From Candidatus Omnitrophota bacterium (GTDB lineage Bacteria; Omnitrophota; Gorgyraeia; Gygaellales; Profunditerraquicolaceae): DNA of 64,000 nt. The position numbers were made by a program, and so were the translations under genes. The stretch's first letter is position 1. Every line of letters starts with the position of its first letter. The notes beneath the pieces were generated by a model, which made no database searches, was not told the DNA's origin, and saw nothing but the letters and a program-made list of their open reading frames with translations. This document shows, piece after piece, positions 1 to 31,611 of the stretch. The DNA lies in contig JALNZI010000001.1 of the NCBI GenBank assembly GCA_023229385.1, forward strand, positions 26,419 through 90,418, given 5' to 3'.

Positions 1-165
1 ATCAGATATTTAGCTCTATGTAATAATGACTATAAAAAATATATAGAGTTAAGGATCGCGTACTATAATAAAATAGTAGCTGTTAACCCTAAATTAAAAG
101 TGTTTCTAAAAGGCTGGCTTAATAGAACAACCAGCCTTTTAACGTATCTAAAATCTATTCATTAA
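1..165 (+). CDS. 3' fragment of an unidentified CDS entering from the left edge
   Basis: Frame 1 has no stop from nt 1 to TAA 163-165 (54 codons, read by hand), which is long for DNA this AT-rich. It is absent from the ORF track because no start lies in the window. Its tail overlaps the nadE 3' end by 11 nt. Confidence 0.3.
   Translation: MRYLALCNNDYKKYIELRIAYYNKIVAVNPKLKVFLKGWLNRTTSLLTYLKSIH
108..140. terminator. bidirectional intrinsic-terminator-like hairpin
   Basis: AAAGGCTGG, 13-nt loop, CCAGCCTTT. An A-run lies 5' and a T-run 3', so it reads as stem plus U-tract on both strands. It sits just beyond the nadE stop. Confidence 0.5.
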
Positions 166-1873
166 ATCCAGTATAATTATTTAAAATAGTATCTCGCATT
201 GAAAATCCAAATGATCTATTTGACAAAATCAGCACAGGTGAACCCTGTGCTCTCTTATATGCAGTTGTCTTGATTTTTTTCCAAGCCAAATATACATTCT
301 TAGTAATATCTTCCAAGGTATATCCCCATAAATCACCTGAATAATTGGATTCTGCTCGTATTGCATTAATAACTTCTTTAGGGGTCATGCCTTCTCGAAT
401 GAACAATTCACAAACTCTGCTCATAATTACATAATCAAAAGGATCTTCGTTACTATCTTCTAATTCTGCTGCTGGTTTTAATGATCCATCATACAAGCAT
501 TTTGGAATTACTTCAACCATCTCTACTTTATTAATATATTCAGCTAATTTAAAGATCTCAGTTTTACTTAGATCCCCAATTGGCTGCAAAATTCCACAAT
601 AGTTTCCAATATCGCCAAATGAATTCCACCCTAATGCATTTTCAGTATGGTTTCCACAGGATAATAAACCGCTATTATAATTATGAGTAGCAGAAATACC
701 CAAAGCCTTTCGCAAAGTGGCTTCAAACGAAGCTATTTGTCCTGGCTTGGCATCTGGGTTGTTTTTCTTGTATACATCTATATATTCAATAATAGGTTCA
801 TACTTTAATTCTACTCCTAAGTTAGTGGCTAATACTTGAGCATTATTTAAAGTAATTTTCCCATTATTTTTTGAAGGCTGAGTTATGAATATTACATGAT
901 CCTTATCCATAGCTTTAACGGCGAAATATCCAACTAAAGCTGAATCAATTCCTCCGCTAATATGAACTTGAGCATTTTCAATGTGGCATTGTTCGTATAT
1001 ATGCTTAATTGAATAAATGATTGCATTTGCAATCATACCATATTTTGATTTATTTTCTAAAATATTGCTAGTATAATCCTCACTAGTTAATTCTAAATCA
1101 GAATCATTCAAAATAACTGTAGCTAAATGCTCCTTAAATCTAGGAGCAACTTGAGTTACATAGTGTTCATTATTTTTATTGTGTGAAATTAATGATCCAC
1201 CATCATAGCACATAAAATTCTTACTAATATCACCAATTCCTACACTATTAACATATAAAATAGGAATAATATTATGAATATTATGTAAAATATTAGCTCG
1301 CTGCTGCTTCTTGTCAAAAGTAAAATAACTAAAATTTAGAGAAAAAATTACTTCAGCACCTTCTTCTGCATTTTCTCTAATTAAATCCTTAGAATAAGAA
1401 TTCCAAAGATCTTCGCAAATTAAAACTCCAAATTTAATACCATTATAGTATAATACCTTATTACTCTTTCCTGCGGTAAAGTATTTACGATCTTCATGAT
1501 GATAATCATTAGCTAATTTTTGTTTATCATAAATTCCAATAATCTTTCCATCAGCCAAAACGAATGCACTATTGTATAATTTATGATTATCGTCTAATCT
1601 AGGTGATCCAATGATTACAACAGTTTTATTATTCTCGGTTAATTTAGCAATACTATTAACCCTATCTTCACAATCATGAATGAAAGGCTTTTTTTCAAAT
1701 AAATCACCACAATTATAACCGCTTAATGTCATCTCAGGGAATACGATAAAATCATATTGTAAATTATCCTTTACAATATTGAAAGCTTTATTGTAATTGT
1801 CTTCAACGGCACCCGTTTTGATCTCAATTTGAGCCGCTAAAATCTTTTTTGCTTCAGGCATCAAATACTCCAT
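155..1873 (-). CDS. nadE: glutamine-dependent NAD+ synthetase (CN-hydrolase + NAD synthase domains)
   Basis: 572 aa. The N-terminal nitrilase-type domain shows FPEMTLSGY, KQKL and GVLICEDLW, matching the Glu/Lys/Cys triad contexts. The C-terminal domain has the PP-loop HISGGIDSAL. Confidence 0.85.
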   Translation of the reverse strand: MEYLMPEAKKILAAQIEIKTGAVEDNYNKAFNIVKDNLQYDFIVFPEMTLSGYNCGDLFEKKPFIHDCEDRVNSIAKLTENNKTVVIIGSPRLDDNHKLYNSAFVLADGKIIGIYDKQKLANDYHHEDRKYFTAGKSNKVLYYNGIKFGVLICEDLWNSYSKDLIRENAEEGAEVIFSLNFSYFTFDKKQQRANILHNIHNIIPILYVNSVGIGDISKNFMCYDGGSLISHNKNNEHYVTQVAPRFKEHLATVILNDSDLELTSEDYTSNILENKSKYGMIANAIIYSIKHIYEQCHIENAQVHISGGIDSALVGYFAVKAMDKDHVIFITQPSKNNGKITLNNAQVLATNLGVELKYEPIIEYIDVYKKNNPDAKPGQIASFEATLRKALGISATHNYNSGLLSCGNHTENALGWNSFGDIGNYCGILQPIGDLSKTEIFKLAEYINKVEMVEVIPKCLYDGSLKPAAELEDSNEDPFDYVIMSRVCELFIREGMTPKEVINAIRAESNYSGDLWGYTLEDITKNVYLAWKKIKTTAYKRAQGSPVLILSNRSFGFSMRDTILNNYTGFNE

Positions 1874-2822
1874 TCTTTTTGTATATGTTAAAAAGTGCTT
1901 TATGTTCAGGCATGAAATGATCTTCTGTTAAGTCAGATTTACTAAATAACCTCAACTCCCCACCTTTCATATCATCTAAAGGAATAAAATTTGATCCGAC
2001 TTCAGCTTCTAATACAAATAAAGCAGTTTTAATGCAATGTTTAGATTTCTTATAACGAGGATCATTGACTCTAGGTCCAAAGATGTATCGTAAGTTATCA
2101 ATAGATCCAGTATATCCCGTTTCTTCCTGAACTTCCCGCAAAGCATCTTCCTCTAAAGATTCAGAATCTGGATCAGAAAATCCCCCAATAAATCTAAATT
2201 TATCTTGATTTGGCTTTCTACCTAATAATACCCCATCCCCAACTAAAATGCAAGCATCTACAGTTTGATAAGCTGTTGGATATTGATTATTTGCCAAATA
2301 AAATGCTCCTTTAATGAACATAGGATCTGGTAAAAATACAGTAGAGCATTGCTGACGCATATTGGTTGCACTTATGCCGTCATTAAAATATTGAAATCTA
2401 ACTTTATTGTTAAATTCTCCAAAATAATGATCAATAAAAGAATCTCTTCCACCCATTAATCCAACTTCATCAGGAGTAGTATAATATTTGCAATTTTTGA
2501 TTTTCTCATCTAGCATTTTGGACCACTTAGGCACATCATGCACATCTACTAATTCAGTAAATTCAATGCGGCTAATAGTGCGAATAACGTCCCCCATCGT
2601 TGATTTTGGAGTATTGAATACATTATATAATGCTCTAATTAATAGTTCTACCCTTACTTCATAAGGAATTAAATCAATTTCTGTTTTGATACTATTTGAA
2701 CCAATTACTACTAGTACACTATTTGCACTATTTAAAGCGCTTGTGATCAATGCAATATGAGATTCAGTTGGCTCTGGTGCTTGGAATTTTCCAACAACAA
2801 CTCCTAATTTATAGTTAGACAT
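1854..2822 (-). CDS. nadM: bifunctional NMN/NaMN adenylyltransferase (NadM type) fused to a Nudix ADP-ribose pyrophosphatase domain
   Basis: 322 aa. GKFQ...TESH sits where the (H/T)xGH motif is expected, and ISATNMR matches ISxTxxR. The Nudix box is GGFSDPDSESLEEDALREVQEETG. The architecture matches KVP40 NatV and cyanobacterial NadM-Nudix. Confidence 0.8.
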   Translation of the reverse strand: MSNYKLGVVVGKFQAPEPTESHIALITSALNSANSVLVVIGSNSIKTEIDLIPYEVRVELLIRALYNVFNTPKSTMGDVIRTISRIEFTELVDVHDVPKWSKMLDEKIKNCKYYTTPDEVGLMGGRDSFIDHYFGEFNNKVRFQYFNDGISATNMRQQCSTVFLPDPMFIKGAFYLANNQYPTAYQTVDACILVGDGVLLGRKPNQDKFRFIGGFSDPDSESLEEDALREVQEETGYTGSIDNLRYIFGPRVNDPRYKKSKHCIKTALFVLEAEVGSNFIPLDDMKGGELRLFSKSDLTEDHFMPEHKALFNIYKKNGVFDA

Positions 2823-3990
2823 TTTTTACATCCTCCTCTAATGCATTCAATAAATATTCTTGATATTTTTTATTTTCGCACATACTCTTTCCAATATCAT
2901 TACTAATTTTAGAAACTGGACGACCATTAACTGAAGTGATCTTCATTACAATATTAAGTATTGTGTGATTTAATCCAACGTCATTTGTTAAATTAGTACC
3001 GACTCCAAAAGAAACATTAATTTTGTTTCCAAATTCTTCATATAGTTTAATACAATCAGGAATACTTAAACTATTACTAAAAACCATACTTTTTGTTTTA
3101 GGATCAATTCCATATTTTTTATAATGATTTAATATTTCATAACCCCATTTAATAGGATCACCACTATCATGTCTAACTCCATTATAAGTCTTAGTTAAGT
3201 ATTCATCAAAATCTTTTAAAAACTTATTGTTAGGAAAAATATCACTCAAAGCTATTAAGAAATTATTTCCCCATAATCTATTCCAATCATATAAACATTT
3301 AATTTGAGAATCAAGTGGATGATTGATTCCTTGATAAAATTGCAAAATAGAATGTCCCATTGTACCTAAAACATTAATATTAAATATTTTACCTAATTCT
3401 ACATTTGAAGTACCTAATATATTATCAGTTTCACTTATTAATCTACTTAAAACATGTAAATGCCATTCTTTACTAAATCTGCGTCTAGTTCCAAATTCCA
3501 TTAGTTTAATATTAGGATTATTGTTCAATAGCTCTATCTTGCTAGTTAATAATTCATCCCCTTTTACTTCAAAATCCTCTAATTCTTTACGCGAATATAA
3601 TTGCTCATTAAATGTCTCATTTACTATTGATAATACTGGAATATCCAATAATAATGTAGTCCAATACTCTCCTTTAACTTTAATGTTTAAATTATTATTA
3701 ATAATACTAACAATTATTCCATTTTCATCAAATGGTACATTATTATTAATATATTCATATAAGAAAGATAATTTATCATAACATATTTTATTTAAATATT
3801 TAACTTCATTGTTAGTAAATCTTAATTTAATATATTCAGATAATTGATATCTAACACTATCTGCAATATTGGATAGATTAATATCATTGCGGCACTTAAA
3901 AGAATATTCTACCCAATTTCCACTATGCTGTTTAGCTAGCGCAAGCATAGTAAACTGGTAAACATCAGTATCTAGAAAACTAGTTAACAT
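2815..3990 (-). CDS. pncB: nicotinate phosphoribosyltransferase
   Basis: 391 aa, colinear with E. coli PncB as I remember it. Shared elements: LDTDVYQFTM N-terminus, MEFGTRRRFS, GVRHDSGDP, SFGVGTNLT, NIVMKI..NGRPVSKIS. Confidence 0.8.
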   Translation of the reverse strand: MLTSFLDTDVYQFTMLALAKQHSGNWVEYSFKCRNDINLSNIADSVRYQLSEYIKLRFTNNEVKYLNKICYDKLSFLYEYINNNVPFDENGIIVSIINNNLNIKVKGEYWTTLLLDIPVLSIVNETFNEQLYSRKELEDFEVKGDELLTSKIELLNNNPNIKLMEFGTRRRFSKEWHLHVLSRLISETDNILGTSNVELGKIFNINVLGTMGHSILQFYQGINHPLDSQIKCLYDWNRLWGNNFLIALSDIFPNNKFLKDFDEYLTKTYNGVRHDSGDPIKWGYEILNHYKKYGIDPKTKSMVFSNSLSIPDCIKLYEEFGNKINVSFGVGTNLTNDVGLNHTILNIVMKITSVNGRPVSKISNDIGKSMCENKKYQEYLLNALEEDVKNV

Positions 3991-14172: not shown

Positions 14173-15724
14173 CAACTGTTCCACTAAATGAAATACTAAA
14201 TGTTAGAATAATTGTGTTACTATCAACAACCGTAATACTAGGAATAATTGTTGAACCCGATGAATTAGTACAATTTACAGTAACTGTTTTATTTAAATTA
14301 TGAATAATTGTTGCAGTAGTTACATTGTATAAAGTAGTTGAATAAGTTGAAGTAATTGTTTTTTCTATTGAATTTACAATATTATTATCAGATATCTCAG
14401 CAAAATGATCATATGCTAAGTCAACTACTGAACTTACATTAGTAACTCTTAAATTGTCATATACTGAATTAGTACTATCAGAAGTTTTTTTAGTATCTTT
14501 TTTTGAATTAGAAATATTAGTTTCAGCTAATGTTATTTCAGCTTTTTTTTCAACTAATTTTGCACTTAAATTAGTTGTTAATTCTTTAACACGTAATGCT
14601 GCACTATCATCATCTGATATTGGCAAAAATGAACTTAATTTAGATTTAATTACATTACTTTGAGAAGATTTGATTGCTTCTGATTCAATGGCATCTCTAG
14701 CTAAAATAGAAGCTCTTCCTCCAGTTAATGTATCTAATTCCTCACATATTACCTTAATTGCCCCTAGAGAAGCATTTGCAAGGCATGTAGAGTATTCTAA
14801 TTGTGTTTGGACATACTTGCTAAGTAGACCATCTGGACCGCTTAAACAGTCTTCTAGCATCTCTTTTATTGCTTTAGCTAAAGATGAATTATTTTTTTTA
14901 GCGGAAGCTGGTAATTTTGATAGCATAGATGAAGGCAATTTGCTATCTCCTAAATCACTGTGCCCATTTTGCTTTAATATTTCGTAAAATTTACTTTCTT
15001 TATTTTTTAGAAAATCACTTATTGTAGAACTAGATTCATTGAATAATAATGCAGTATGTCCTGGTTCACTTTCATTTATTAATGAGCTATCATTAAATTC
15101 AATATGTAACTCAGTATTTGATTGTTTTATAAAAATTCCACTTAAATTGAAATAATCACTATTATTAATATAAAACCAATTTACTATATTATAAACATAG
15201 TCGAAATATTCAGATTTAGTTCTAATATCTATAGCTAATCCTCTTTGATGAACTGAGGTATTAGGCTTGGCCCAAGTATATCCTAATGAATTTAGTGCGG
15301 ATTGAATTGAATTGTAATCAAATTCAAATAAATAATTACCATTATATTTTCCTATCAATTCAGGATTTGTTTGTTTTGATTTGTACTTTGAAAAATTAAT
15401 ATTTGGATTATTATCATATAATAATTTCAATCCTATTTTTGCTTGTAATTCAGGAGGAATATATGCATTTGAAATGTATGTGCTTTCTGGCATATATCTC
15501 CCAACTATACTCCAAAAATCATAATGAAAACTTTTAAGATAAGCTCCATCTAAAATTAAAGGTTGCAATAAAGGATATCTTAATGTTTTAATACTATTAT
15601 TTACACCAGATACTTCATACACTTTAGCATCGCTAATCAGTGAACTATTTCCATTTTGGAAATAACTTAAAGCGCTTGCATTAAAATATGATAGTGAAAG
15701 ATCACTGCCCTTTGGATAATTCAT
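14162..15724 (-). CDS. LAS-family (peptidase M15/VanY-like) cell-wall peptidase domain protein with a long S/T/N-rich C-terminal region
   Basis: 520 aa. SVHQRGLAIDI matches HxxGxAxD, followed by TELHIEF. A late box lies 6 nt upstream. Confidence 0.5.
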   Translation of the reverse strand: MNYPKGSDLSLSYFNASALSYFQNGNSSLISDAKVYEVSGVNNSIKTLRYPLLQPLILDGAYLKSFHYDFWSIVGRYMPESTYISNAYIPPELQAKIGLKLLYDNNPNINFSKYKSKQTNPELIGKYNGNYLFEFDYNSIQSALNSLGYTWAKPNTSVHQRGLAIDIRTKSEYFDYVYNIVNWFYINNSDYFNLSGIFIKQSNTELHIEFNDSSLINESEPGHTALLFNESSSTISDFLKNKESKFYEILKQNGHSDLGDSKLPSSMLSKLPASAKKNNSSLAKAIKEMLEDCLSGPDGLLSKYVQTQLEYSTCLANASLGAIKVICEELDTLTGGRASILARDAIESEAIKSSQSNVIKSKLSSFLPISDDDSAALRVKELTTNLSAKLVEKKAEITLAETNISNSKKDTKKTSDSTNSVYDNLRVTNVSSVVDLAYDHFAEISDNNIVNSIEKTITSTYSTTLYNVTTATIIHNLNKTVTVNCTNSSGSTIIPSITVVDSNTIILTFSISFSGTVVIR

Positions 15725-17330
15725 TTAAAGTATTTATTATAGAAAATGTATGGTTTAAAGTAAGAGTTTCTATATTGAATTTTTTCTTTAAGTAATAACC
15801 ATGCCTAGCTATATATTGTAGATTAACTCTACTTCTCCACATATTTCCTGTTCTTTTTAAAATTGATAAATCATCTACTAAATCATAGATAGTGGCAAAA
15901 TCCTTAGTTTCATGTAATCTTAATATTCTACCTATTGATTGTACAATTGTTTCATATGAGCGCAAAGATGATGCAAAAATACAATTATGTAATTTCTTGA
16001 TGTTAATACCTGTTGACATTGTTGTATAAGTAGCAACTAATATAACACCTTCTCTATCATTCATTGAAGTAATAATGGCATCTCTTTTTGTTTTCTTTAT
16101 GCCACCGTATATTATTTCTGTAGTAAATTGAGGATGATATTTGTTTATATGTTTAACAATATCATCCAATTCACCATTTTCTATTTTACTACAAAGAATT
16201 AATGTATTTTGTTTAGGTGTTATTTTACCAGAATTTATTAAATTAGATATGGTCCATAATTTTGATTTATTTAATCTTAATAATTCAACTTCCTCATCAA
16301 ATTTTATATCATTTTGCTTCATAAATTTAATGGATTTTAAATCATAAGGTAACATTACTTCAACAATATTTGCTTTAGCCAATATTCCTCTATCTTGAAG
16401 ATCTTTAGTTTCAGCTAATATTATTTTTTTACCAAACGCACCTTCTAAAGTTTTCACATACAAAGGCTCTTCAGGAATCGTCCCGGTGAATCCTAGTCTG
16501 TATTCAGCATTTATGCATGAATTCAATACTCCTAATAATGTTTTACCATCTTTTTTTGCTCTATGCGCTTCATCTAACATAACCATATTGAATCTATTAC
16601 AGAATTCTTTATCTTTTGATAGTAATCCATCAATTGAATTATATACAGCTATCATTACTGGCTTAGTTAATGCATCTGCTTTTTCAGAGGCAGTAAATTC
16701 AGAATCATATAATCCAACATATTTGTCAATATTATTCCATTTATATGATTTAAAATCTCTATACATTTGAGTAACTAATGCTACATTTGGAACTAACAAT
16801 AATACTTTAAAATCTTTATCTTTATTTAAATGCATTAAATATCTTATTAATAGATAAATTAATACACTTTTACCAGATCCAGTAGGTGATTCAAATAATA
16901 GTCTTTTCTTTTTAATAGCTAATTTAAATCCATTAATTTGAAAATCATATGGATTGAATCCATTTAATTTAGCAAAATTATCAATAAATGAATCTATTTC
17001 ATCGTAATTAATATTATCTTCTAAAAATGATGTTTTAATATCATCACTAACTTCTACTTCAAATGAAGATGCTTTTAGTAATTTAACGGCTTCAGGCACT
17101 AAGCCTAATGGCAAAGCTCCATATATTTTTTTAAATACATGTAATTTACCATCATATCTAGTTATTTTTCTATTTTTGTACCTTTTATCAAATTTATAAT
17201 TTGGAGTATATATTGCAAAATTACCATCTAAATATGATAATGGATTTGCATAAGTAGATTCTGTTTCTGATCTACCTAACCAAACAAATTTAGCCCATAT
17301 ATTGTTTAATTTATCTACTCTAACTGGCAC
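15702..17330 (-). CDS. uvsW: SF2 DEAD/DEAH-box DNA helicase, UvsW-like
   Basis: 542 aa with a GTG start. Walker A is ESPTGSGKS and Walker B is MLDEAH. Also shows GFTGT and the C-terminal helicase motif QSIGRILR. Confidence 0.65.
   Translation of the reverse strand: MPVRVDKLNNIWAKFVWLGRSETESTYANPLSYLDGNFAIYTPNYKFDKRYKNRKITRYDGKLHVFKKIYGALPLGLVPEAVKLLKASSFEVEVSDDIKTSFLEDNINYDEIDSFIDNFAKLNGFNPYDFQINGFKLAIKKKRLLFESPTGSGKSVLIYLLIRYLMHLNKDKDFKVLLLVPNVALVTQMYRDFKSYKWNNIDKYVGLYDSEFTASEKADALTKPVMIAVYNSIDGLLSKDKEFCNRFNMVMLDEAHRAKKDGKTLLGVLNSCINAEYRLGFTGTIPEEPLYVKTLEGAFGKKIILAETKDLQDRGILAKANIVEVMLPYDLKSIKFMKQNDIKFDEEVELLRLNKSKLWTISNLINSGKITPKQNTLILCSKIENGELDDIVKHINKYHPQFTTEIIYGGIKKTKRDAIITSMNDREGVILVATYTTMSTGINIKKLHNCIFASSLRSYETIVQSIGRILRLHETKDFATIYDLVDDLSILKRTGNMWRSRVNLQYIARHGYYLKKKFNIETLTLNHTFSIINTLNELSKGQ
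15731..15737 (-). promoter_or_regulatory. late-type box ATAAATA
   Basis: 6 nt upstream of ATG 15724, inside the helicase 3' end. Confidence 0.45.
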
Positions 17331-17360: not shown

Positions 17361-17816
17361 TTAGTATGCCATTAATGAAGTCTTAATCAATTCAACTTGA
17401 TTTGATACTTTAGCATTAATGTATTTAAAATACTCTACATAATCCTTAAGTAAATTGTATATTACTTCTAATTTTGAGATACTTTCTCGTATTGAAATAT
17501 ATTCACTATCAAGGGCTATTTTTTCAAGCATTTCAGTCTTGTCAATAACTCTATGTTCATTGAAAGTTTCATCATATCTACATTTTTGTTTTATTTTATT
17601 TTCTATAATATTTAATTTATTTTTTAATTGATTTAATTTTATAGAAGTTCTACCTAATTTTGATAACCATTTATTAAATAGCAATCCAGTACCTAGATTG
17701 TATCTCATTAAATCTTCAATTTTCTCTGGAAGTACACTATCTTTTTCAAATATATTAATGAGATTTTCAAGTTTATATTCTTCATCAAACATTATCTCAA
17801 AATCAGTCTTTTCCAT
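17361..17816 (-). CDS. hypothetical coiled-coil protein
   Basis: 151-aa ORF, the first gene leftward of the divergent hub. Confidence 0.5.
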   Translation of the reverse strand: MEKTDFEIMFDEEYKLENLINIFEKDSVLPEKIEDLMRYNLGTGLLFNKWLSKLGRTSIKLNQLKNKLNIIENKIKQKCRYDETFNEHRVIDKTEMLEKIALDSEYISIRESISKLEVIYNLLKDYVEYFKYINAKVSNQVELIKTSLMAY

Positions 17817-17823
17817 TATGTAA

Positions 17824-17829
17824 ATTATA
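17824..17829 (-). promoter_or_regulatory. -10 hexamer TATAAT
   Basis: 7 nt upstream of ATG 17816. There is no TG extension. Confidence 0.3.
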
Positions 17830-17880
17830 ACTATTGTTTAATAGCTATATATAAATTATATATAATTATTTAATAATTCA

Positions 17881-18107
17881 ATATGTTCTTTAATAATTAT
17901 ATATACTATAAATTATTCAATATATTGTACGAAGTACTAATAAATTAATCAATAATATATCAATACTTTTAAGATATTTAACAATATATATTTAATTCTT
18001 TAATATGTTCTTTAATAATTATATATACTATAAATTATTCAATATATTGTACGAAGTACTAATAAATTAATCAATAATATATCAATACTTTTAAGATATT
18101 TAACAAT
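17881..18107. repeat. tandem direct repeat: two perfect 105-bp copies (17881-17985, 18003-18107), period 122 bp
   Basis: Copies compared base by base. Each holds GTACGAAGTAC and TTAAGATATTTAACAA. A unit has 14 G+C in 105 nt. Confidence 0.9.
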
Positions 18108-18111
18108 TGGA

Positions 18112-18117
18112 TATAAT
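18112..18117 (+). promoter_or_regulatory. -10 hexamer TATAAT facing the C-rich island
   Basis: Context is ttggaTATAATttc, immediately after repeat copy 2. It would start transcription near 18124. Confidence 0.3.
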
Positions 18118-18440
18118 TTCTCTAATTCCCCCTTCCAGCCCCATTGAGATTTGACGAATCTCAGCTAGAAGAAGTACTTCTCTACATTACAAAACTTATG
18201 TCATTAAGAATTATATGTAACGCCCCCCTTTAGATACTCAGTTGTGATTTCGATGAAATCTAGGAATTTCTCTTCCTAATCAACTACCTCTGCCATGCTC
18301 CAGTTGTTAAGATATACTTAACAACCTCCCGTAGGCGTATCTACAATGTCTATGAGCCAGCTTCATCAGCTTTGATTTCTCGTGACTCTCATAAACCTTC
18401 CTCCGATTTCTGTTAGCTCGGAAACTCTAAGCAAAGTATA
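18118..18440 (+). ncRNA. candidate structured non-coding RNA or long structured leader (unclassified); strand uncertain
   Basis: No ORF longer than 11 codons. 40% G+C (121 of 300, hand count for 18121-18420), against 13% in the adjacent repeat. C 79 versus G 42. At least 7 local hairpins or palindromes. Confidence 0.3.
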
Positions 18441-18456
18441 ACAAAAAATTTTGGTT

Positions 18457-18465
18457 TGATATAAT
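18457..18465 (+). promoter_or_regulatory. extended -10 promoter TGATATAAT (TTTGATATAATTA family)
   Basis: 30 nt upstream of ATG 18496. The identical 13-mer recurs at 23431 and 31634. Confidence 0.5.
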
Positions 18466-18495: not shown

Positions 18496-19833
18496 ATGAA
18501 ACATTTTTTAAAATATAGCACCGAATTAATTGATTTAATTTTAGGTGAATTATCCAATGGAGCTTCAGTTAAAGATTTATCTAAAAAATATGCAATAGAT
18601 ACTAGACGCATATATGAATGGAAAAACAAGCATAGAAAAAAAGTAGATGTTTCAATTAAACAAGATTTAGAGATTAAAGAAGAAAACGAAAAAGTAATTA
18701 CTTCAAATTCTAAAGAATTTTTAACAATTGAAGAAGTATTAAGAAAAAATGGAATATCTCAAGATGAATGGGAAGTTACCAATGTAAAGATAAACAATTG
18801 GGAAGATTCATCAGGTGAAGTGCATTATCAAAATAAAATAAATTTAATTAAGAAAAATATTAATTTAACTTATGAAGTACCGGCTCCAATTATAATTAAT
18901 AATAATTCGCATCAATCATATCGTGCAACTTTAAATACAAATTTAAAATGTGCAATAATTTTACCAGACATTCAAACTGGTTTTAGACGAGATGTTAATA
19001 CTGGTAAACTAACTGCTATTCATGATAGAGTTGCAATAGATTTAGCTCTTCAATTAATTAAATATTTAAATCCTCATAGAGTTGTTTTATTAGGAGATAA
19101 TTTAGATTTAGCAGAATTTTCAACTAAATATCAAATTTCAAATGATTTTTATTTTACAACTCAAGCATCTCTAGTAGAACTAGCTTGGTGGCTTGGGCAA
19201 ATAAGATCAATAAATCCTAACATGCAAATTGATTACACACAAGGTAATCATGAAAAAAGACTTGAAAAATATATAAATGAAAAAGCAATTGCATTAAGCG
19301 GCTTAAAAGCTGCAAATAACCTAAATGGATTTCCTTCAATTAGTGTCGAATCGTTATTAGGTTTAGATTCTTTAAATATTAAATGTCATTCATATCCAGA
19401 AGGTAAAGTAGCTCTTAATAGTAATTTAATTTGTATACATGGAGAAACAGCAAAAGGCCAATCTGGTGCAACTGTTTCTGAATTAGTTAAATCAGCCAGA
19501 GTATCAGTAATTCAAGGGCATATACATAGACATGAAGTAGCTGTTAGAACTACTTGGGATGCTTATGATGATTATTATCAATACACTGCTGCATCATTTG
19601 GATGTTTATGTAAAATAGCTCCAGGGGTTGTACCTGGAATGAAGATACGCCAAAATTGGCAAAACGGCATTGGTATTGTTTGGTATGAAGAATCTGGATT
19701 AGAACAATTTAGATTAGAATATGTACCAATTATTAATGGTAGAAGCTTATATGATGGAGTAATATTTAATGGTAGTAATGAATCAGATATTGTAAAAAAC
19801 ATAGAAAGCGACACTAATTATAAAGTATCATGA
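18496..19833 (+). CDS. HTH-domain protein fused to a calcineurin-like metallophosphoesterase
   Basis: The track starts at GTG 18490, but ATG 18496 has better AGG spacing. N-terminal HTH: VKDLSKKYAIDTRRIYEW. MPE motifs: LPDIQTG, LLGDNLD, GNHE, IHGE, QGHIHRH. Confidence 0.65.
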   Translation: MKHFLKYSTELIDLILGELSNGASVKDLSKKYAIDTRRIYEWKNKHRKKVDVSIKQDLEIKEENEKVITSNSKEFLTIEEVLRKNGISQDEWEVTNVKINNWEDSSGEVHYQNKINLIKKNINLTYEVPAPIIINNNSHQSYRATLNTNLKCAIILPDIQTGFRRDVNTGKLTAIHDRVAIDLALQLIKYLNPHRVVLLGDNLDLAEFSTKYQISNDFYFTTQASLVELAWWLGQIRSINPNMQIDYTQGNHEKRLEKYINEKAIALSGLKAANNLNGFPSISVESLLGLDSLNIKCHSYPEGKVALNSNLICIHGETAKGQSGATVSELVKSARVSVIQGHIHRHEVAVRTTWDAYDDYYQYTAASFGCLCKIAPGVVPGMKIRQNWQNGIGIVWYEESGLEQFRLEYVPIINGRSLYDGVIFNGSNESDIVKNIESDTNYKVS

Positions 19834-27567: not shown

Positions 27568-30500
27568 ATGTTTAAGAATATCTATGTAGATAAGTATAAA
27601 AATACTTTTAAAATTTGGAATACTGAAGATAAAGTTATTGAAAGTAAATTTCAATGCCGTTCTTGGGTAGAAAATCCTGGCATAGATAGTCCATATAAAA
27701 CGATATATGGTGTTCCGGTTATGCCGGTATTTAAGAACTATAAAGATGAATATCTAGATAGAACAGACGGCAATCTTAGGCATGAAATAGATATTCAGCC
27801 TGAAATTAGAATATTAAGTGAATATTATGAGAAAGAAAAAGATTTAGATTTCGATATTAGTGATTTTAATATAATGTCATTTGATATTGAAACTGAAATT
27901 GGTTGCGGATTCCCTGAGCCATCTGAAGCCAAAATGAAAGTGAATCTTATTAGCTGCTATTGCACAAAGCAGCAAAAATATATGATTTTTGGATTGCATC
28001 CAATAGATGATCAAAGATTTCATAGTTTAATTATTGAAAAAAATAAAATATATCAAGAGCAATTTCCTGATATTAATATTACTGATAATTATACATATGT
28101 TTGCGCATATGAGGATGAAACTAGACTTTTAAATGATTTTTTTAAGTATGTAGAAAAAGCTCATCCTGACATCTATACAGGTTGGAACTGTATTGCCAAA
28201 AACTCAAGTCTATGGCTGCAAGATAGAATAATTGAAATTAAAGATTCATCATCTGGAGATAATACTTTCATTGATGGCAATATTATCAAAACAGCTAATA
28301 CTGGTTTTAAAAAAGCTTATAAAATAGAAACAGTAAATGGCTATTCAATCACTTCATCAGGTGAACATATATTTCCAATCAAATATATTAAGGAAGGAAA
28401 ATATTGCAATAATGTATCTAAATCTTTATTAAATAAGGACTGTAAAGTATCTGAATTAATTGATTTATCTAAAGAAAATAGATTATTTTTAAAAGTAGAT
28501 ATTAGAAATAATACTAATAAAAAATATACATATAGGGATTTGTTAATATATGCACTAATATCTGGTCGAAATAGTAAATTAGATATATTAATACCTGAAC
28601 CTATATATACTAAGAATAGGAAAAAATTAAATGCTAATTATTCGTATAATAAAGCTAAACAATATCCTTTTAAATTTTCAGTAAATAATTGCAGAAAATT
28701 AGTAAATATTAGCGACTCTGAATTAATAGATTCTATTAATTCAATTGATGAAGCTGTGGTATTAATAGATAAAAGTAATGCTACTATTAATTTAAATGAA
28801 ATAATTCCTGATGATATTTTTAAGTTAATGGGATTAATATATACTGATGGTAGCTATTGCAGCAAGCATAAAGAATTTAGTTTTTATAATACTGATGAGC
28901 AGATATTAGATTGGGTGCTCAATTGTTTGCATTCAAATAAATTATCAAACACTAATTCATTAAGTAATGGTCATTTTTGCAAAAGAATACGTTGCACTAA
29001 TTCTGCTAAAAATAATTTAATAAAAACATTAATATATAATGAAGACAAAAAAGATATTGATTTAAGTAATTTATCTAGAATAGCCTATTCTCAATTTTGC
29101 GCAATGTTTTCTGGATTAATTGACGGAGATGGATGGATTTCTAAAAAGAATTCAGCTATCGGATTTTGTAATTATAATAATAATGACATTAATAAAATAG
29201 CTGAATTGCTACAATGGAATGGTGTATTATGCGGAGTTCATAAAAATAAAATACATATATCAAATAAATCTGTTAATACAAAGTTTATAAATTCTTTATC
29301 GTTAGTTGGTAAAAAAAGAGATTTAATAAGTAATATTAATCTAGTTGACAATAAGAATACTAAATCAAAATTATTAGATTATATTTTTTACGAAAATTAT
29401 TACTATGTTAAGATTGATTCAATAACAGCAGTTGATTCAGTTGAAATGGTTGATATAGAAACTGAATCGCATTATTTTAATACCAATTATGGAATTAAAA
29501 CTCATAATTGTAACGCTTTTGACTTGCCATATTTGGTAAATAGAGCTAAAAATCTAGGAATGTATGAATATTTACTATTATCTCCAGTAAAAAAAGTATA
29601 TTTAAGAAAATCCCGTAATGAAGAATATAATACTGAGGAATTGATTCCAGTAATTAGTGGAGTTTCTTGTATTGACTATTTAACATTATATAAGCATTTC
29701 AATAAAGGTAGCCAAAAAGAAAGTTGGAAACTTGATTTTATTGCTAATGAAGAATTAGATGGATTAGGTAAAGTTAAATTAGGTGATACTGGATTAAATC
29801 TTGCTAAAAAAGATTGGACTGCTTTTTCTTTATATAACTTAGTAGATACGGTATTAATTACACTATTAGAACCTAGACTTCAAATGATCGAAACTCTTAT
29901 AGGGACATGTTCAGAGGCTAGAATTCCCCTTGAATTCTTCTTCACTCCTAAAAAAGTGACGTTAGGATTTATGCTAACATATATGCACAGAAAAGGGTTG
30001 GTAATTCCATTTACTAAACCTGCGGTAAAAGAAAAATATGAGGGTGCCTATATTAAGATGAATCCAGGACCCTATAGGAATGTGTCATCATTAGATGCGA
30101 AATCAATGTATCCATCTATAATGATATCTTGTAATATTTCACCTGAAACTAAAGTAATATCTGATAAACCAATACCTGGATATAGTAGATCAATTATTCC
30201 AAATATTTATTACAATAATGAAAAAAGAGGCATTATTCCTGAAATTGTTGCTTATATGGTTGATACTAGAGATGAATATAAAAAGCAACAAAAAATATAT
30301 TCAAATCCAGAAAGACCTGAATATAATAAAACAAAGGCATCTTATTTTAAACGTAAACAGAATGCTTATAAAATATTTGCTAACTCAATATATGGACTAT
30401 TGGGTAATAATAACTTCCAATTCTATGATTTGGATAATGCGGCAACCATTACTGGAATAGGTAATAGGTTAATTCAATATGTAATTACTTATTTGAACGT

Positions 30501-31611
30501 ATGGATTGACAATAAACTCGGAACCAATAAAGATTACTTTAATGAATTTGGCGAATTTGCAAATGTAAAAATAAAAGGTGAATTAAGTGATACCTATATT
30601 AATTCAATACAAGATAATGAGCAAAAAGCTGGGCTGGGTAAATACACTAGATTGGCATTAGCGCATACTGATTCATTCTTCTTTGATTATAGTGATTTAT
30701 ATGAACCTTTTGAAAATAAAACTAGATCATATGAAGAATATGCAGCAATAAAAGAAAGGTTTAGTAATAAAAATAGCCCGTCATTCAACATTCCATTAAA
30801 AAAATATTTTGAAGATATGCATGATGAACAATTGGAAAAGATGACTTTTACTGAATTCATGCTTAGATTTAATTATTGTATTTTTCAAAAAATAATAAAC
30901 AAGATTACTCAAAGATGGTGCGAAACTTACTCTTATAGAGAAGATCGTATGTATTTCAAATTAGAAAAATGTTGTTCAAATGTTGTGGCATTAAGCAAAG
31001 CTCACTATATATGCTATCTGCAATATGATGAAGGTGATTTATTAATCAGACAGCCTTTTAAAAAGAGATTAAAAGCAGTTGGAGTTGAGATGATTAAGGC
31101 TGATACTCCCTCTTGGTCAAAAGCTAAAATTCTAGAAACTCTAGAGTTTACATTTACTAAAAACAATAAGCAAGAAGTTTCCAAATTTATAGGAATGCTA
31201 AAGAAAGAATATAAAGATCCCGCTAATATATCTAAAATATCTAGGCCGGTTTCGATAAATAGTTTAGGTCCAACCAAAGCCAATAGTTTTCCAGCTCCTA
31301 GATTAGGGGCAATAAAGTGGAATGCAATTTTATCAGAAGATACTAATTTTTCAAATTATGAGCAAATAAGTGAGGGGACAAAGGTAAAATGGATTGCAGT
31401 AAAGTTGCCAAATAAATTCAATATTCAAGCTATTAGCTACAATAGCGATACTTGGCCTGTTGAATTAAATAGATACTTTAGAATTGATTATGAAACACAA
31501 TTTTACAAAACATTTAGACGCCCATTAGAGAAAATTATGGAATGTTATGGATGGGGCAATGTTTTTGATGGAAACGTAGATTCAATAAGAAGGTTCTTCG
31601 CACCAAAATAA
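27568..31611 (+). CDS. gp43: family B DNA polymerase (T4 gp43-like) interrupted by an intein
   Basis: 1347 aa. Exo I is FDIETE. Exo II, GWN / CNAFDLPY, is split by the intein. Motif A is SLDAKSMYPSIM, motif B is KIFANSIYG, motif C is LAHTDSFFF. It is 907 aa after intein removal. Confidence 0.9.
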   Translation: MFKNIYVDKYKNTFKIWNTEDKVIESKFQCRSWVENPGIDSPYKTIYGVPVMPVFKNYKDEYLDRTDGNLRHEIDIQPEIRILSEYYEKEKDLDFDISDFNIMSFDIETEIGCGFPEPSEAKMKVNLISCYCTKQQKYMIFGLHPIDDQRFHSLIIEKNKIYQEQFPDINITDNYTYVCAYEDETRLLNDFFKYVEKAHPDIYTGWNCIAKNSSLWLQDRIIEIKDSSSGDNTFIDGNIIKTANTGFKKAYKIETVNGYSITSSGEHIFPIKYIKEGKYCNNVSKSLLNKDCKVSELIDLSKENRLFLKVDIRNNTNKKYTYRDLLIYALISGRNSKLDILIPEPIYTKNRKKLNANYSYNKAKQYPFKFSVNNCRKLVNISDSELIDSINSIDEAVVLIDKSNATINLNEIIPDDIFKLMGLIYTDGSYCSKHKEFSFYNTDEQILDWVLNCLHSNKLSNTNSLSNGHFCKRIRCTNSAKNNLIKTLIYNEDKKDIDLSNLSRIAYSQFCAMFSGLIDGDGWISKKNSAIGFCNYNNNDINKIAELLQWNGVLCGVHKNKIHISNKSVNTKFINSLSLVGKKRDLISNINLVDNKNTKSKLLDYIFYENYYYVKIDSITAVDSVEMVDIETESHYFNTNYGIKTHNCNAFDLPYLVNRAKNLGMYEYLLLSPVKKVYLRKSRNEEYNTEELIPVISGVSCIDYLTLYKHFNKGSQKESWKLDFIANEELDGLGKVKLGDTGLNLAKKDWTAFSLYNLVDTVLITLLEPRLQMIETLIGTCSEARIPLEFFFTPKKVTLGFMLTYMHRKGLVIPFTKPAVKEKYEGAYIKMNPGPYRNVSSLDAKSMYPSIMISCNISPETKVISDKPIPGYSRSIIPNIYYNNEKRGIIPEIVAYMVDTRDEYKKQQKIYSNPERPEYNKTKASYFKRKQNAYKIFANSIYGLLGNNNFQFYDLDNAATITGIGNRLIQYVITYLNVWIDNKLGTNKDYFNEFGEFANVKIKGELSDTYINSIQDNEQKAGLGKYTRLALAHTDSFFFDYSDLYEPFENKTRSYEEYAAIKERFSNKNSPSFNIPLKKYFEDMHDEQLEKMTFTEFMLRFNYCIFQKIINKITQRWCETYSYREDRMYFKLEKCCSNVVALSKAHYICYLQYDEGDLLIRQPFKKRLKAVGVEMIKADTPSWSKAKILETLEFTFTKNNKQEVSKFIGMLKKEYKDPANISKISRPVSINSLGPTKANSFPAPRLGAIKWNAILSEDTNFSNYEQISEGTKVKWIAVKLPNKFNIQAISYNSDTWPVELNRYFRIDYETQFYKTFRRPLEKIMECYGWGNVFDGNVDSIRRFFAPK
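28189..29508 (+). mobile_element. class 1 intein with a LAGLIDADG homing endonuclease domain (440 aa)
   Basis: Starts with Cys (CIAKNSSLWL). Block B is GYSITSSGEHIF. LAGLIDADG motifs are LMGLIYTDGSY and FSGLIDGDGWI. Block F is VEMVDIETESHYF. Ends GIKTHN, followed by +1 Cys. In frame (1320 nt). Confidence 0.85.

Follow-up and report, generated by a model that had tools for sequence, protein, structure and literature searches.

A 64,000-nucleotide stretch of contig JALNZI010000001.1 (GenBank assembly GCA_023229385.1, Candidatus Omnitrophota bacterium; hereafter the window) contains a G+C-rich island at 18108-18456, between two divergently transcribed groups of phage replication and recombination genes. 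The island is very probably the gene for a structured RNA of the minus strand, with a predicted body of ~320 nucleotides (nt; 18109-18434, minus strand) that is supported by profile, RNAalifold and covariation over ten distinct sequences. A candidate promoter of sigma-70 type drives the island leftward, and as far as the Rfam 15 and ARAGORN libraries go, the RNA is a new family. Covariation and the null results from both libraries bear out the central claim of a preliminary description of the locus, made from the letters alone, that a structured phage-encoded RNA outside known families lies here.

Composition sets the island apart. Its G+C content is 38.1% (C84/G49), compared with 27.6% for the whole window and 12.0% for the neighbouring 17817-18107. 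The hand count in the preliminary description was exact for 18121-18420 (A79 C79 G42 T100, 40.3% G+C), and its low figure for the adjacent repeat agrees with the 12.0-13% found. The island was also described as non-coding, and an open reading frame (ORF) scan of the window finds none of 30 or more amino acids (aa) there; lowering the cut-off to 20 aa admits two, both starting with TTG and 29 and 22 aa long, neither of which is kept in homologues. Folded singly against shuffles, the island shows a modest gain on either strand (z = -2.35 plus, -2.15 minus). Scores this mild on both strands mean that the island sequence alone decides nothing, and the real evidence is comparative.

Homologues and the covarying fold

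The homologue search proposed in the preliminary description came back empty from cultured phages and productive from metagenomes, where covarying relatives were found. Searches of INPHARED with blastn and megablast, using the island and its 10-kb surroundings, return no match, and the best INPHARED protein match is 32%, leaving the phage without a close cultured relative. In IMG/VR, neither an exact 36-mer nor a single-protein back-translation has a match, and the 15-mer AGCTGATGAAGCNGG has chance matches only. Homologues were instead reached through relatives of the flanking phosphoesterase, which lead to metagenomic contigs and IMG/VR loci where uvsY and the phosphoesterase gene likewise stand on either side of a large intergenic region; protein-alignment scans supplied four usable loci from metagenomes and one from genomes, the latter being the L018 phage in an Ignavibacteria bin. 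Every syntenic locus holds an intergenic block of ~300-370 nt with raised G+C.

A profile of one group, clade A, retrieves ten distinct versions (E 5e-38 to 2e-71), all between uvsY-like and helix-turn-helix (HTH)-phosphoesterase genes, and scores the window island at nhmmer E = 5e-64. Clade A comprises the window phage with the near-identical L001-L003; L004, L006, L284 and L289; and L014, L015, L018, L286 and L288. The island is conserved at the nucleotide level while the flanking proteins are 45-66% identical, and the stretches GCTTCATCAGCT..TGACT..AACCTTCC are near-identical between phages whose flanking proteins share 64-66%. A second group, clade B (L009, L010, L011-13), has an equal-sized block in the same place and orientation. 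Sequence profiles fail to join the two clades in either direction, and clade B is treated here either as analogous in position or as a relative that has diverged very far.

Covariation was scored in two sub-clades, A1 (four sequences, including the window) and A2 (five sequences). The A2 fold has 88 pairs, of which 95.7% are canonical and 27 double-changed, and none of 500 shuffles reaches any of these measures; control strands slid by 1-3 nt show 36-45% pairing and 2-6 double changes. The A1 fold has 78 pairs (93.7% canonical, 35 double-changed; 0/500 shuffles). RNAalifold gives the same architecture independently in both sub-clades, and clade B shares the main elements. This covariation is strong evidence of a conserved RNA fold. 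A joint MAFFT alignment of the ten sequences followed by RNAalifold failed on the central and 3' domains, and a covariance model built from A2 alone recovered the other sub-clade weakly. Helix strands are shifted between the sub-clades, which is why the ten-sequence alignment fails, and per-clade alignments with hand registration were used.

The predicted RNA has ~13 helices, arranged as a 5' hairpin, a 9-bp helix with an inner hairpin, a long-range helix and a 3' domain. The 5' hairpin P1 (18402-18422, minus strand, as are all the elements that follow) pairs UCCGA with UCGGA around an 11-nt loop and has compensatory changes at four of its five pairs; in clade A2, the equivalent hairpin is capped by a GNRA tetraloop (GAAA, GAGA, GCAA) in three sequences out of five. 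P2 (18348-18396) is a 9-bp helix, GUUUAUGAG/CUCAUAGAC, canonical in the ten-sequence alignment with double changes at 6/9 pairs; it encloses the hairpin P2a (18359-18371, loop GAUGA) along with a conserved asymmetric loop. P3 joins strands ~100 nt apart: UU-G-UAGAUAC (18337-18346), with a conserved 1-nt bulge, pairs with GUAUCUAAA (18229-18237). Registered by hand over ten sequences, P3 is canonical in 90/90 cells and has compensatory double changes at all nine pairs.

Within P3 lie a variable hairpin and a three-way element. The hairpin, P4 (18292-18336), varies in length and shows compensatory G-C to A-U changes, with G·U where the plus strand would show A·C. The three-way element is built on P5 (18239-18286; 58/60 canonical cells, double changes at 6/6 pairs), which encloses P5a (UAGGAA-GAGAAA-UUCCUA, with a conserved GAGAMA loop) and P5b (GAUUUC-AUC-GAAAUC, of varying length). 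Directly 3' of P3 stands an unpaired G-run, A-GGGGG (18223-18228), whose GGGG is invariant in 10/10 clade-A sequences and which corresponds to the only C6 run on the plus strand of the 64-kb window. The 3' domain continues with P6 (18186-18221), a variable hairpin with many double changes (helices 11 and 12), and with the unpaired AAGUACU (18173-18179) just 5' of P7; its palindrome AGUACU is identical in 10/10 clade-A sequences, and L288 has G for the first A of the heptamer. P7 (18129-18174, helix 13) pairs CUUCUUCUAGC with the 3' G-tracts GCUGGAAGGGG and encloses a GAGAU/AUCUC hairpin; its nine pairs are 100% paired, four of them with double changes.

All seven local stems listed in the preliminary description are found where it placed them, and four are covariation-supported helices of the minus strand. 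The GATTT/AAATC stem is P5b, the TAGGAA/TTCCTA stem is P5a, and the 9-bp stem at 18303-18325 is the distal part of P4 (18304-18324). The GAAGTACTTC element does mark the region that opens P7, as a conserved palindrome rather than a hairpin. GAGAT/ATCTC does form a hairpin inside P7; it is unpaired in the RNAalifold structure of the window's own clade, and covariation backs only its positional equivalent in clade A2. The remaining stems find no support: GTAG/CTAC competes with the long-range P3, and GATTTC/GAAACTC competes with the covarying P1. The pyrimidine tracts that had been called partnerless are real, and their lack of partners holds for the plus strand only: on the minus strand the purine tract at 18129-18139 pairs with CUUCUUCUAGC (18164-18174), some pairs being G·U.

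Four copies of the 8-mer AGTACTTC are present in the window, where 1.35 are expected, and all fall within 17931-18180: one in each copy of the AT-rich repeat described below, and one on each strand at the RNA's invariant AAGUACUUC. The spacers of L004 and L006 also contain AGTACT, unlike those of clade A2. The AGTACTTC/AGTACT site may be a protein-binding or dimerisation site.

Strand, promoters and identity

The strand follows from the wobble pairs. The predicted helices contain G·U and A·C in ratios of 79:3 (clade A2) and 27:5 (clade A1). Read on the plus strand, each G·U would turn into an A·C mismatch, so the functional strand is the minus strand and the molecule is single-stranded.

Promoter placement agrees. 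An extended -10 element, TGTTATACT (TGnTATACT; 18443-18435, minus strand), lies at a position conserved in homologues, and the RNA likely starts at A18428 or G18427. A similar element stands right of the block on the minus strand in 13/13 loci, homologous and analogous versions (clades A and B) taken together; it reads TGYTAnnnT in 12 of the 13 and CGCTAAACT in L284. The promoter scan of the window called the TGTTATACT bases only as a plus-strand -35, and a generic scan of the window for TGnTAnnnT is uninformative. Back-to-back with the RNA promoter lies TGATATAAT (18458-18465, plus strand), a good extended -10 of the rightward replication/recombination operon with positional counterparts in homologues; the preliminary description had listed a promoter there. 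Its other promoter, the plus-strand TATAAT at 18112-18117, is not conserved: it reads TTTAAT in the near-identical strain L002 and is missing in other clades. Past the RNA, L004 has a strong hairpin with a U-run on the minus strand, an intrinsic terminator ~15 nt beyond the RNA, and in L284 the TGTTATACT promoter is found a second time, right in front of uvsY.

No known family accounts for the RNA. The covariance-model scan suggested in the preliminary description gives no Rfam 15 match at the gathering threshold over the whole window, and ARAGORN finds no tRNA or tmRNA gene in the window. The families covered by Rfam include tmRNA, RNase P, group I introns, 6S, SRP, riboswitches, ROOL, GOLLD, OLE, raiA and HEARO. 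Run permissively on the island and on two homologues of higher G+C, the Rfam scans return noise, the best hit being a 13-nt T-loop fragment (E = 0.083). Likenesses noticed by eye, to a hammerhead (CUGAUGA), a C/D box, a K-turn, a T-box sequence, a cobalamin riboswitch, RNase P P4 and a permuted tmRNA (from the T-loop-like P1 of clade B), are none of them backed by the Rfam scans. One further locus, L179, was found via the G-run 17-mer introduced below (3' tail GGAGGTGCGCCAACC) and rejected as a homologue because its neighbouring protein is unrelated and its fold z is -0.9.

Position beside a putative replication origin

The island sits in a 679-bp divergent intergenic region, with the flanking genes diverging at 17816/18496. 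Leftward run UvsY-like (17361-17816) and UvsW-like helicase (15702-17330) genes, followed by RNase H/FEN-like and ribonucleotide reductase genes. Rightward run the HTH-metallophosphoesterase (18496-19833), SbcC-like, SbcD-like and late-sigma-like genes, in a module that also includes DNA polymerase, UvsX, DnaB-like helicase, SSB and primase. This set of replication and recombination genes makes the phage T4-like in those genes, and the locus is the point at which the UvsY/UvsW and polymerase/helicase/primase modules diverge. The cumulative GC skew of the window reaches its minimum at ~18.3 kb, that is, at the island.

Directly past the RNA 3' end lies an AT-rich tandem repeat of two 122-bp copies (17862-18105; 96% identical, 12-13% G+C). 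Each copy carries a GTAC-NNN-GTAC mini-hairpin and a minus-strand promoter-like site, and the repeat is a candidate unwinding or iteron region and candidate uvsY promoter region, judged by its sequence. The promoter-like sites facing uvsY in the window spacer are at 18074-18046 and 17952-17924. The spacer between RNA and uvsY is AT-rich throughout the loci and ranges from 94 to 512 nt, and each relative has different short tandem repeats there (ATTAGCTC x4, TACAGACTC x2.4, AATCATATAAAC x4, a 24-mer x7.8). The idea that the 122-bp repeat is a decayed duplicate of the RNA 3' domain was discarded, the alignment showing no homology.

Small stable G+C hairpins with GNA or UUC triloops (GTAC-GAA-GTAC, GCGAAGC, GCGGAGC; plus strand) recur in the AT-rich spacers, at 17926-17940 and 18048-18062 in the window, at 3185-3200, 3290-3300 and 3405-3415 in L004, and at ~2060 in L284. 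Some precede U-rich runs on the minus strand and are possible weak terminators. The GCGAAGC type is an extraordinarily stable DNA mini-hairpin found at the phiX174 and G4 origins. Six contigs of independent assembly (L002, L003, L007, L008, L009 and L014) end in the spacer, 406-569 nt upstream of the phosphoesterase gene, most likely because tandem repeats break assembly, with a physical genome end as the alternative.

The 3' end of the RNA holds a second origin-like feature. The RNAs of clade B have GGGGGGTAAGGGGGGAG at the 3' end, containing the motif G6-TAA-G6 and pairing with a pyrimidine strand upstream; their GGGGGGTAAGGGGGG 3' end is an exact two-G-run motif like CSB II (conserved sequence block II) of mitochondria. 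At the aligned position clade A2 has G4-5-TA-G5-AA and the window GGGG-CUGGAA-GGGGG (G4-N6-G5). The 15-mer core of the clade-B motif, CCCCCCTTACCCCCC, is letter for letter the CSB-2 block found in the mitochondrial control regions of geckos and frogs.

The 17-mer GGGGGGTAAGGGGGGAG occurs in at least 120 IMG/VR contigs, with 49 flank clusters among the matches listed and 11 for a control with an ATA spacer. These loci (L164-L283) include L188 (4384-4400), L242 (12079-12095), L251 (7063-7079), L180 (6081-6097) and L170 (5205-5221). The ORF that bears the 17-mer encodes a lambda-O-like, DnaD-like or primosomal replication initiator in eight of ten tested loci. Three reading frames and both strands are represented (PPLPP, SPLTP, GGKGG, GVRGE). 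In initiator genes a CCCCCC-loop borders the 17-mer on one side, and T-rich tandem repeats, then iterons, border it on the other. Its occurrence beside iterons in varied frames and on both strands indicates a nucleotide-level motif of phage origins. A literature search found no earlier description of G6-TAA-G6 as a phage origin motif, and to our knowledge there is none. Among the matches listed, the L167 type (at least 29 contigs) and the L166 type (at least 21) are (pro)phages of ~35-40 kb in which the 17-mer is embedded in an extended purine stretch (..AAGGGAGAGGTAAGA-motif-ATCGGAGAGGGATGGGAATAGG..) that follows a GTACTAG..CTAGTAC palindrome; iterons are absent.

Given its position and its G-tract ending, the likeliest place for the RNA to act is in cis at a replication origin, and it is tentatively read, by analogy, as a cis-acting structured origin transcript or pre-primer. 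Host RNA polymerase would synthesise the RNA early, and the G-tract 3' end of the transcript would run into the very AT-rich, iteron-like repeat before uvsY. At the border of this readily melting repeat, the G-rich 3' segment could nucleate a persistent RNA-DNA hybrid, an R-loop that may include a G-quadruplex. The hybrid would supply a leading-strand primer and a helicase entry point, while the folded body might hold the rest of the transcript away from the template, or bring in or regulate replication proteins. Such a scheme would merge the logic of T4 oriF(uvsY)/oriG, of ColE1 RNA II and of the primer made from the mitochondrial light-strand promoter (LSP) at CSB II. Clade B, which keeps position, orientation, size and the 3' pyrimidine/G-tract helix without sequence similarity, fits a position-dependent role. 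A broader proposal is unlikely: that a dedicated folded 'origin RNA' with a CSB-II-like 3' end primes an iteron or AT-rich origin, and that G6-TAA-G6 is a widespread phage origin element related to CSB II mechanistically and perhaps evolutionarily.

Several observations weigh against the origin transcript. The origin would be placed here by analogy only, and the switch in GC skew is confounded with the switch in gene orientation. An R-loop primer needs no tertiary-looking fold of ~13 helices with GNRA loops and, in clade B, a T-loop-like hairpin, and T4 origin transcripts are without conserved structure. The G-tracts are base-paired in the covarying P7 and must open to hybridise with DNA. The window tract, G4-N6-G5, is a degenerate form of G6-TAA-G6, and those of L004, L006 and L284 are weaker still. 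Most of the origins in initiator genes carry the G-run on the template strand of the initiator mRNA, so the motif may act at the DNA level, independently of the transcript. Constant synteny in related phages is no proof of a functional link between the RNA and the repeats, and the repeats could simply be uvsY promoter arrays built on the two promoter-like sites in the spacer.

Almost as likely as the origin transcript is a stand-alone, trans-acting folded RNA, such as a ribonucleoprotein (RNP) scaffold, protein decoy, ligand binder or ribozyme, whose position beside an origin is incidental. Its complex, strongly covarying architecture, GNRA tetraloops and conserved unpaired purine motifs suit such a molecule, as do its own promoter, the L004 terminator right behind it and the seemingly separate uvsY promoters in the spacer; the invariant palindromic AGUACU could mediate dimerisation. 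However, no gene for a partner protein can be identified, the replication origins of unrelated phages give the 3' motif an independent link to origins, and the clade-B block, alike in place, orientation, size and 3' G-tract helix and not in sequence, again points to position. It is improbable that the RNA is a long structured 5' leader, whether of riboswitch type or bound by protein, through which regulated read-through would control the leftward uvsY-uvsW operon. Transcription does head toward uvsY, and most loci lack an obvious intrinsic terminator between RNA and gene. Yet the AT-rich spacer of 94-512 nt with its promoter-like sites intervenes, L284 has its second promoter directly before uvsY, L004 has its terminator, no alternative terminator/antiterminator pairing is seen and no known riboswitch matches; nor is there, right before uvsY, the expression platform expected of a riboswitch or cis-acting leader.

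The other readings are less probable again, and they include the three options of the preliminary description. Its minus-strand option, a G-rich sponge that binds CsrA-like proteins or 30S subunits through GGA/GGAGG, named the correct strand and is nonetheless very improbable in its mechanism. GGAGG does occur twice in the window RNA, and AAGGAG or GGAGGUG lies near the 3' end of most homologues, but the purine tracts are mostly helix strands, unique conserved junctions or unconserved (GGGAGG at 18325-18330 is missing in L004 and L006), and the RNA has one long-range architecture, unlike the array of GGA-loop hairpins expected of the CsrB/RsmZ type. A purely DNA-level element, with origin cruciforms or protein-binding sites and no functional RNA, would fit the origin-like locus and the clustering of AGTACTTC in island and repeats; it is slightly less credible still, as tolerance of G·U and not of A·C is expected of RNA or a single strand rather than of duplex DNA or cruciforms, a conserved promoter reads in, and helices ~100 nt apart covary. 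Hardly any weight falls to the plus-strand readings or to a decayed coding fragment. The preferred option of the preliminary description, a C-rich RNA of the plus strand that pairs with Shine-Dalgarno sequences in the manner of RsaE, could point to C-rich tracts and the TATAAT on that strand, but it is refuted: the transcribed strand is the G-rich minus strand, read from its own promoter, plus-strand helices would carry A·C mismatches, and the TATAAT is unconserved. The leader of the rightward operon is refuted because the promoter serving that operon is downstream of the island and because the RNA is encoded on the opposite strand. A decayed coding fragment is contradicted by the lack of a conserved ORF and by substitutions that are compensatory rather than codon-like.

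Large, highly structured RNAs with this many covarying helices are rare and have historically proved to be ribozymes, RNP cores or guide RNAs, and a new structured RNA class beside replication and recombination genes in uncultured T4-like phages would be a significant addition. If the origin link is true, a T4-type virus would use a structured pre-primer RNA, and T4 R-loop origins, ColE1 RNA II and mitochondrial CSB II, usually treated apart, would be connected. The occurrence of G6-TAA-G6 beside iterons in many unrelated initiator genes makes phage origin melting and priming directly testable.

Other features of these genomes were seen along the way. The window encodes at 155-3990 a cluster for NAD metabolism, with NAD synthetase-like, Nudix hydrolase and nicotinamide phosphoribosyltransferase-like genes; it is an auxiliary NAD salvage module as in some large T4-like phages. 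The DNA polymerase ORF (27568-31611) spans 1347 aa, of which the polymerase profile covers only residues ~640-1330. Some homologues of the 445-aa HTH-metallophosphoesterase (P0004, P0005, P0009, P0011, P0020) reach ~760-780 aa; the window protein aligns to the long homologues in two parts, which makes an intein insertion likely, and P0011 has a faint LAGLIDADG match. L301 (JBAZEQ010000020.1), a 16.6-kb contig in an Ignavibacteria metagenome-assembled genome, is identical to the L018 phage over the compared 330-nt RNA region, and its binning either hints weakly at a host or is an artefact. The L014 locus (83-kb contig) also lies inside the 306-kb L017 (IMGVR_UViG_3300048599_000194), a contig that may represent a jumbo genome, a concatemer or an assembly chimera.

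Comparison with known systems

Among large non-coding RNAs, the closest in kind are ROOL, GOLLD, OLE and raiA, which are likewise large, GC-enriched, rich in covarying helices and phage-associated. The RNA described here differs from them in that it matches none of their Rfam models, is smaller (~320 nt) and lies in a replication module rather than near tRNAs.

At T4 oriF(uvsY) and oriG, a promoter is followed by an A+T-rich unwinding element, and the persistent R-loop of the transcript primes replication (PMC3016281). T4 oriE combines iterons with an early promoter (PMC3016281). Active T4 origins sit at points of transcription divergence and nucleotide skew shift, and UvsW unwinds R-loops (PMC3016281). 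Judged by sequence-level features, the phage locus has all those of T4 origins. Like oriF and oriG, it has a sigma-70-type promoter (18443-18435, minus strand) that reads toward a 12% G+C repeat region (17817-18107) beside uvsY; like T4 origins generally, it combines the divergence at 17816/18496 with the skew minimum at ~18.3 kb, the latter confounded with gene orientation; like oriE, it has iteron-like repeats; and a UvsW-like helicase is encoded alongside, as in T4. Unlike T4 origins, which span ~100 bp and have no conserved structured RNA, it holds ~320 nt of covarying structure between promoter and AT-rich region, and no MotA box is evident.

ColE1 RNA II is a long, specifically folded transcript from upstream of the origin, whose G-rich segment anchors a persistent hybrid to the C-rich template near the origin. 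The phage RNA combines a fold with 3' G-tracts, which are paired within the RNA in P7. It has no sequence or Rfam relationship to RNA II, and its GNRA loops and long-range helices differ. Unlike ColE1, the locus has no RNA I-like antisense gene that was noticed, though no search was aimed at one, and no conserved plus-strand promoter was noticed in the island; the phage encodes a T4-type RNase H/FEN rather than RNase HI.

In mitochondria, the light-strand transcript forms a hybrid G-quadruplex/R-loop at CSB II, where transcription terminates and the transcript becomes a replication primer (PMC3488243; PMC4176368). The phage RNA resembles this LSP/CSB II arrangement in that two G-runs of its RNA-like strand border a putative replication start and follow a promoter at a distance of a few hundred nt, and clade-B RNAs hold the exact gecko and frog string CCCCCCTTACCCCCC. 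It differs in that the window tract is degenerate (G4-N6-G5), the G-runs are base-paired and the polymerase would be bacterial rather than T7-like, and the resemblance to mitochondrial CSB II may be convergent.

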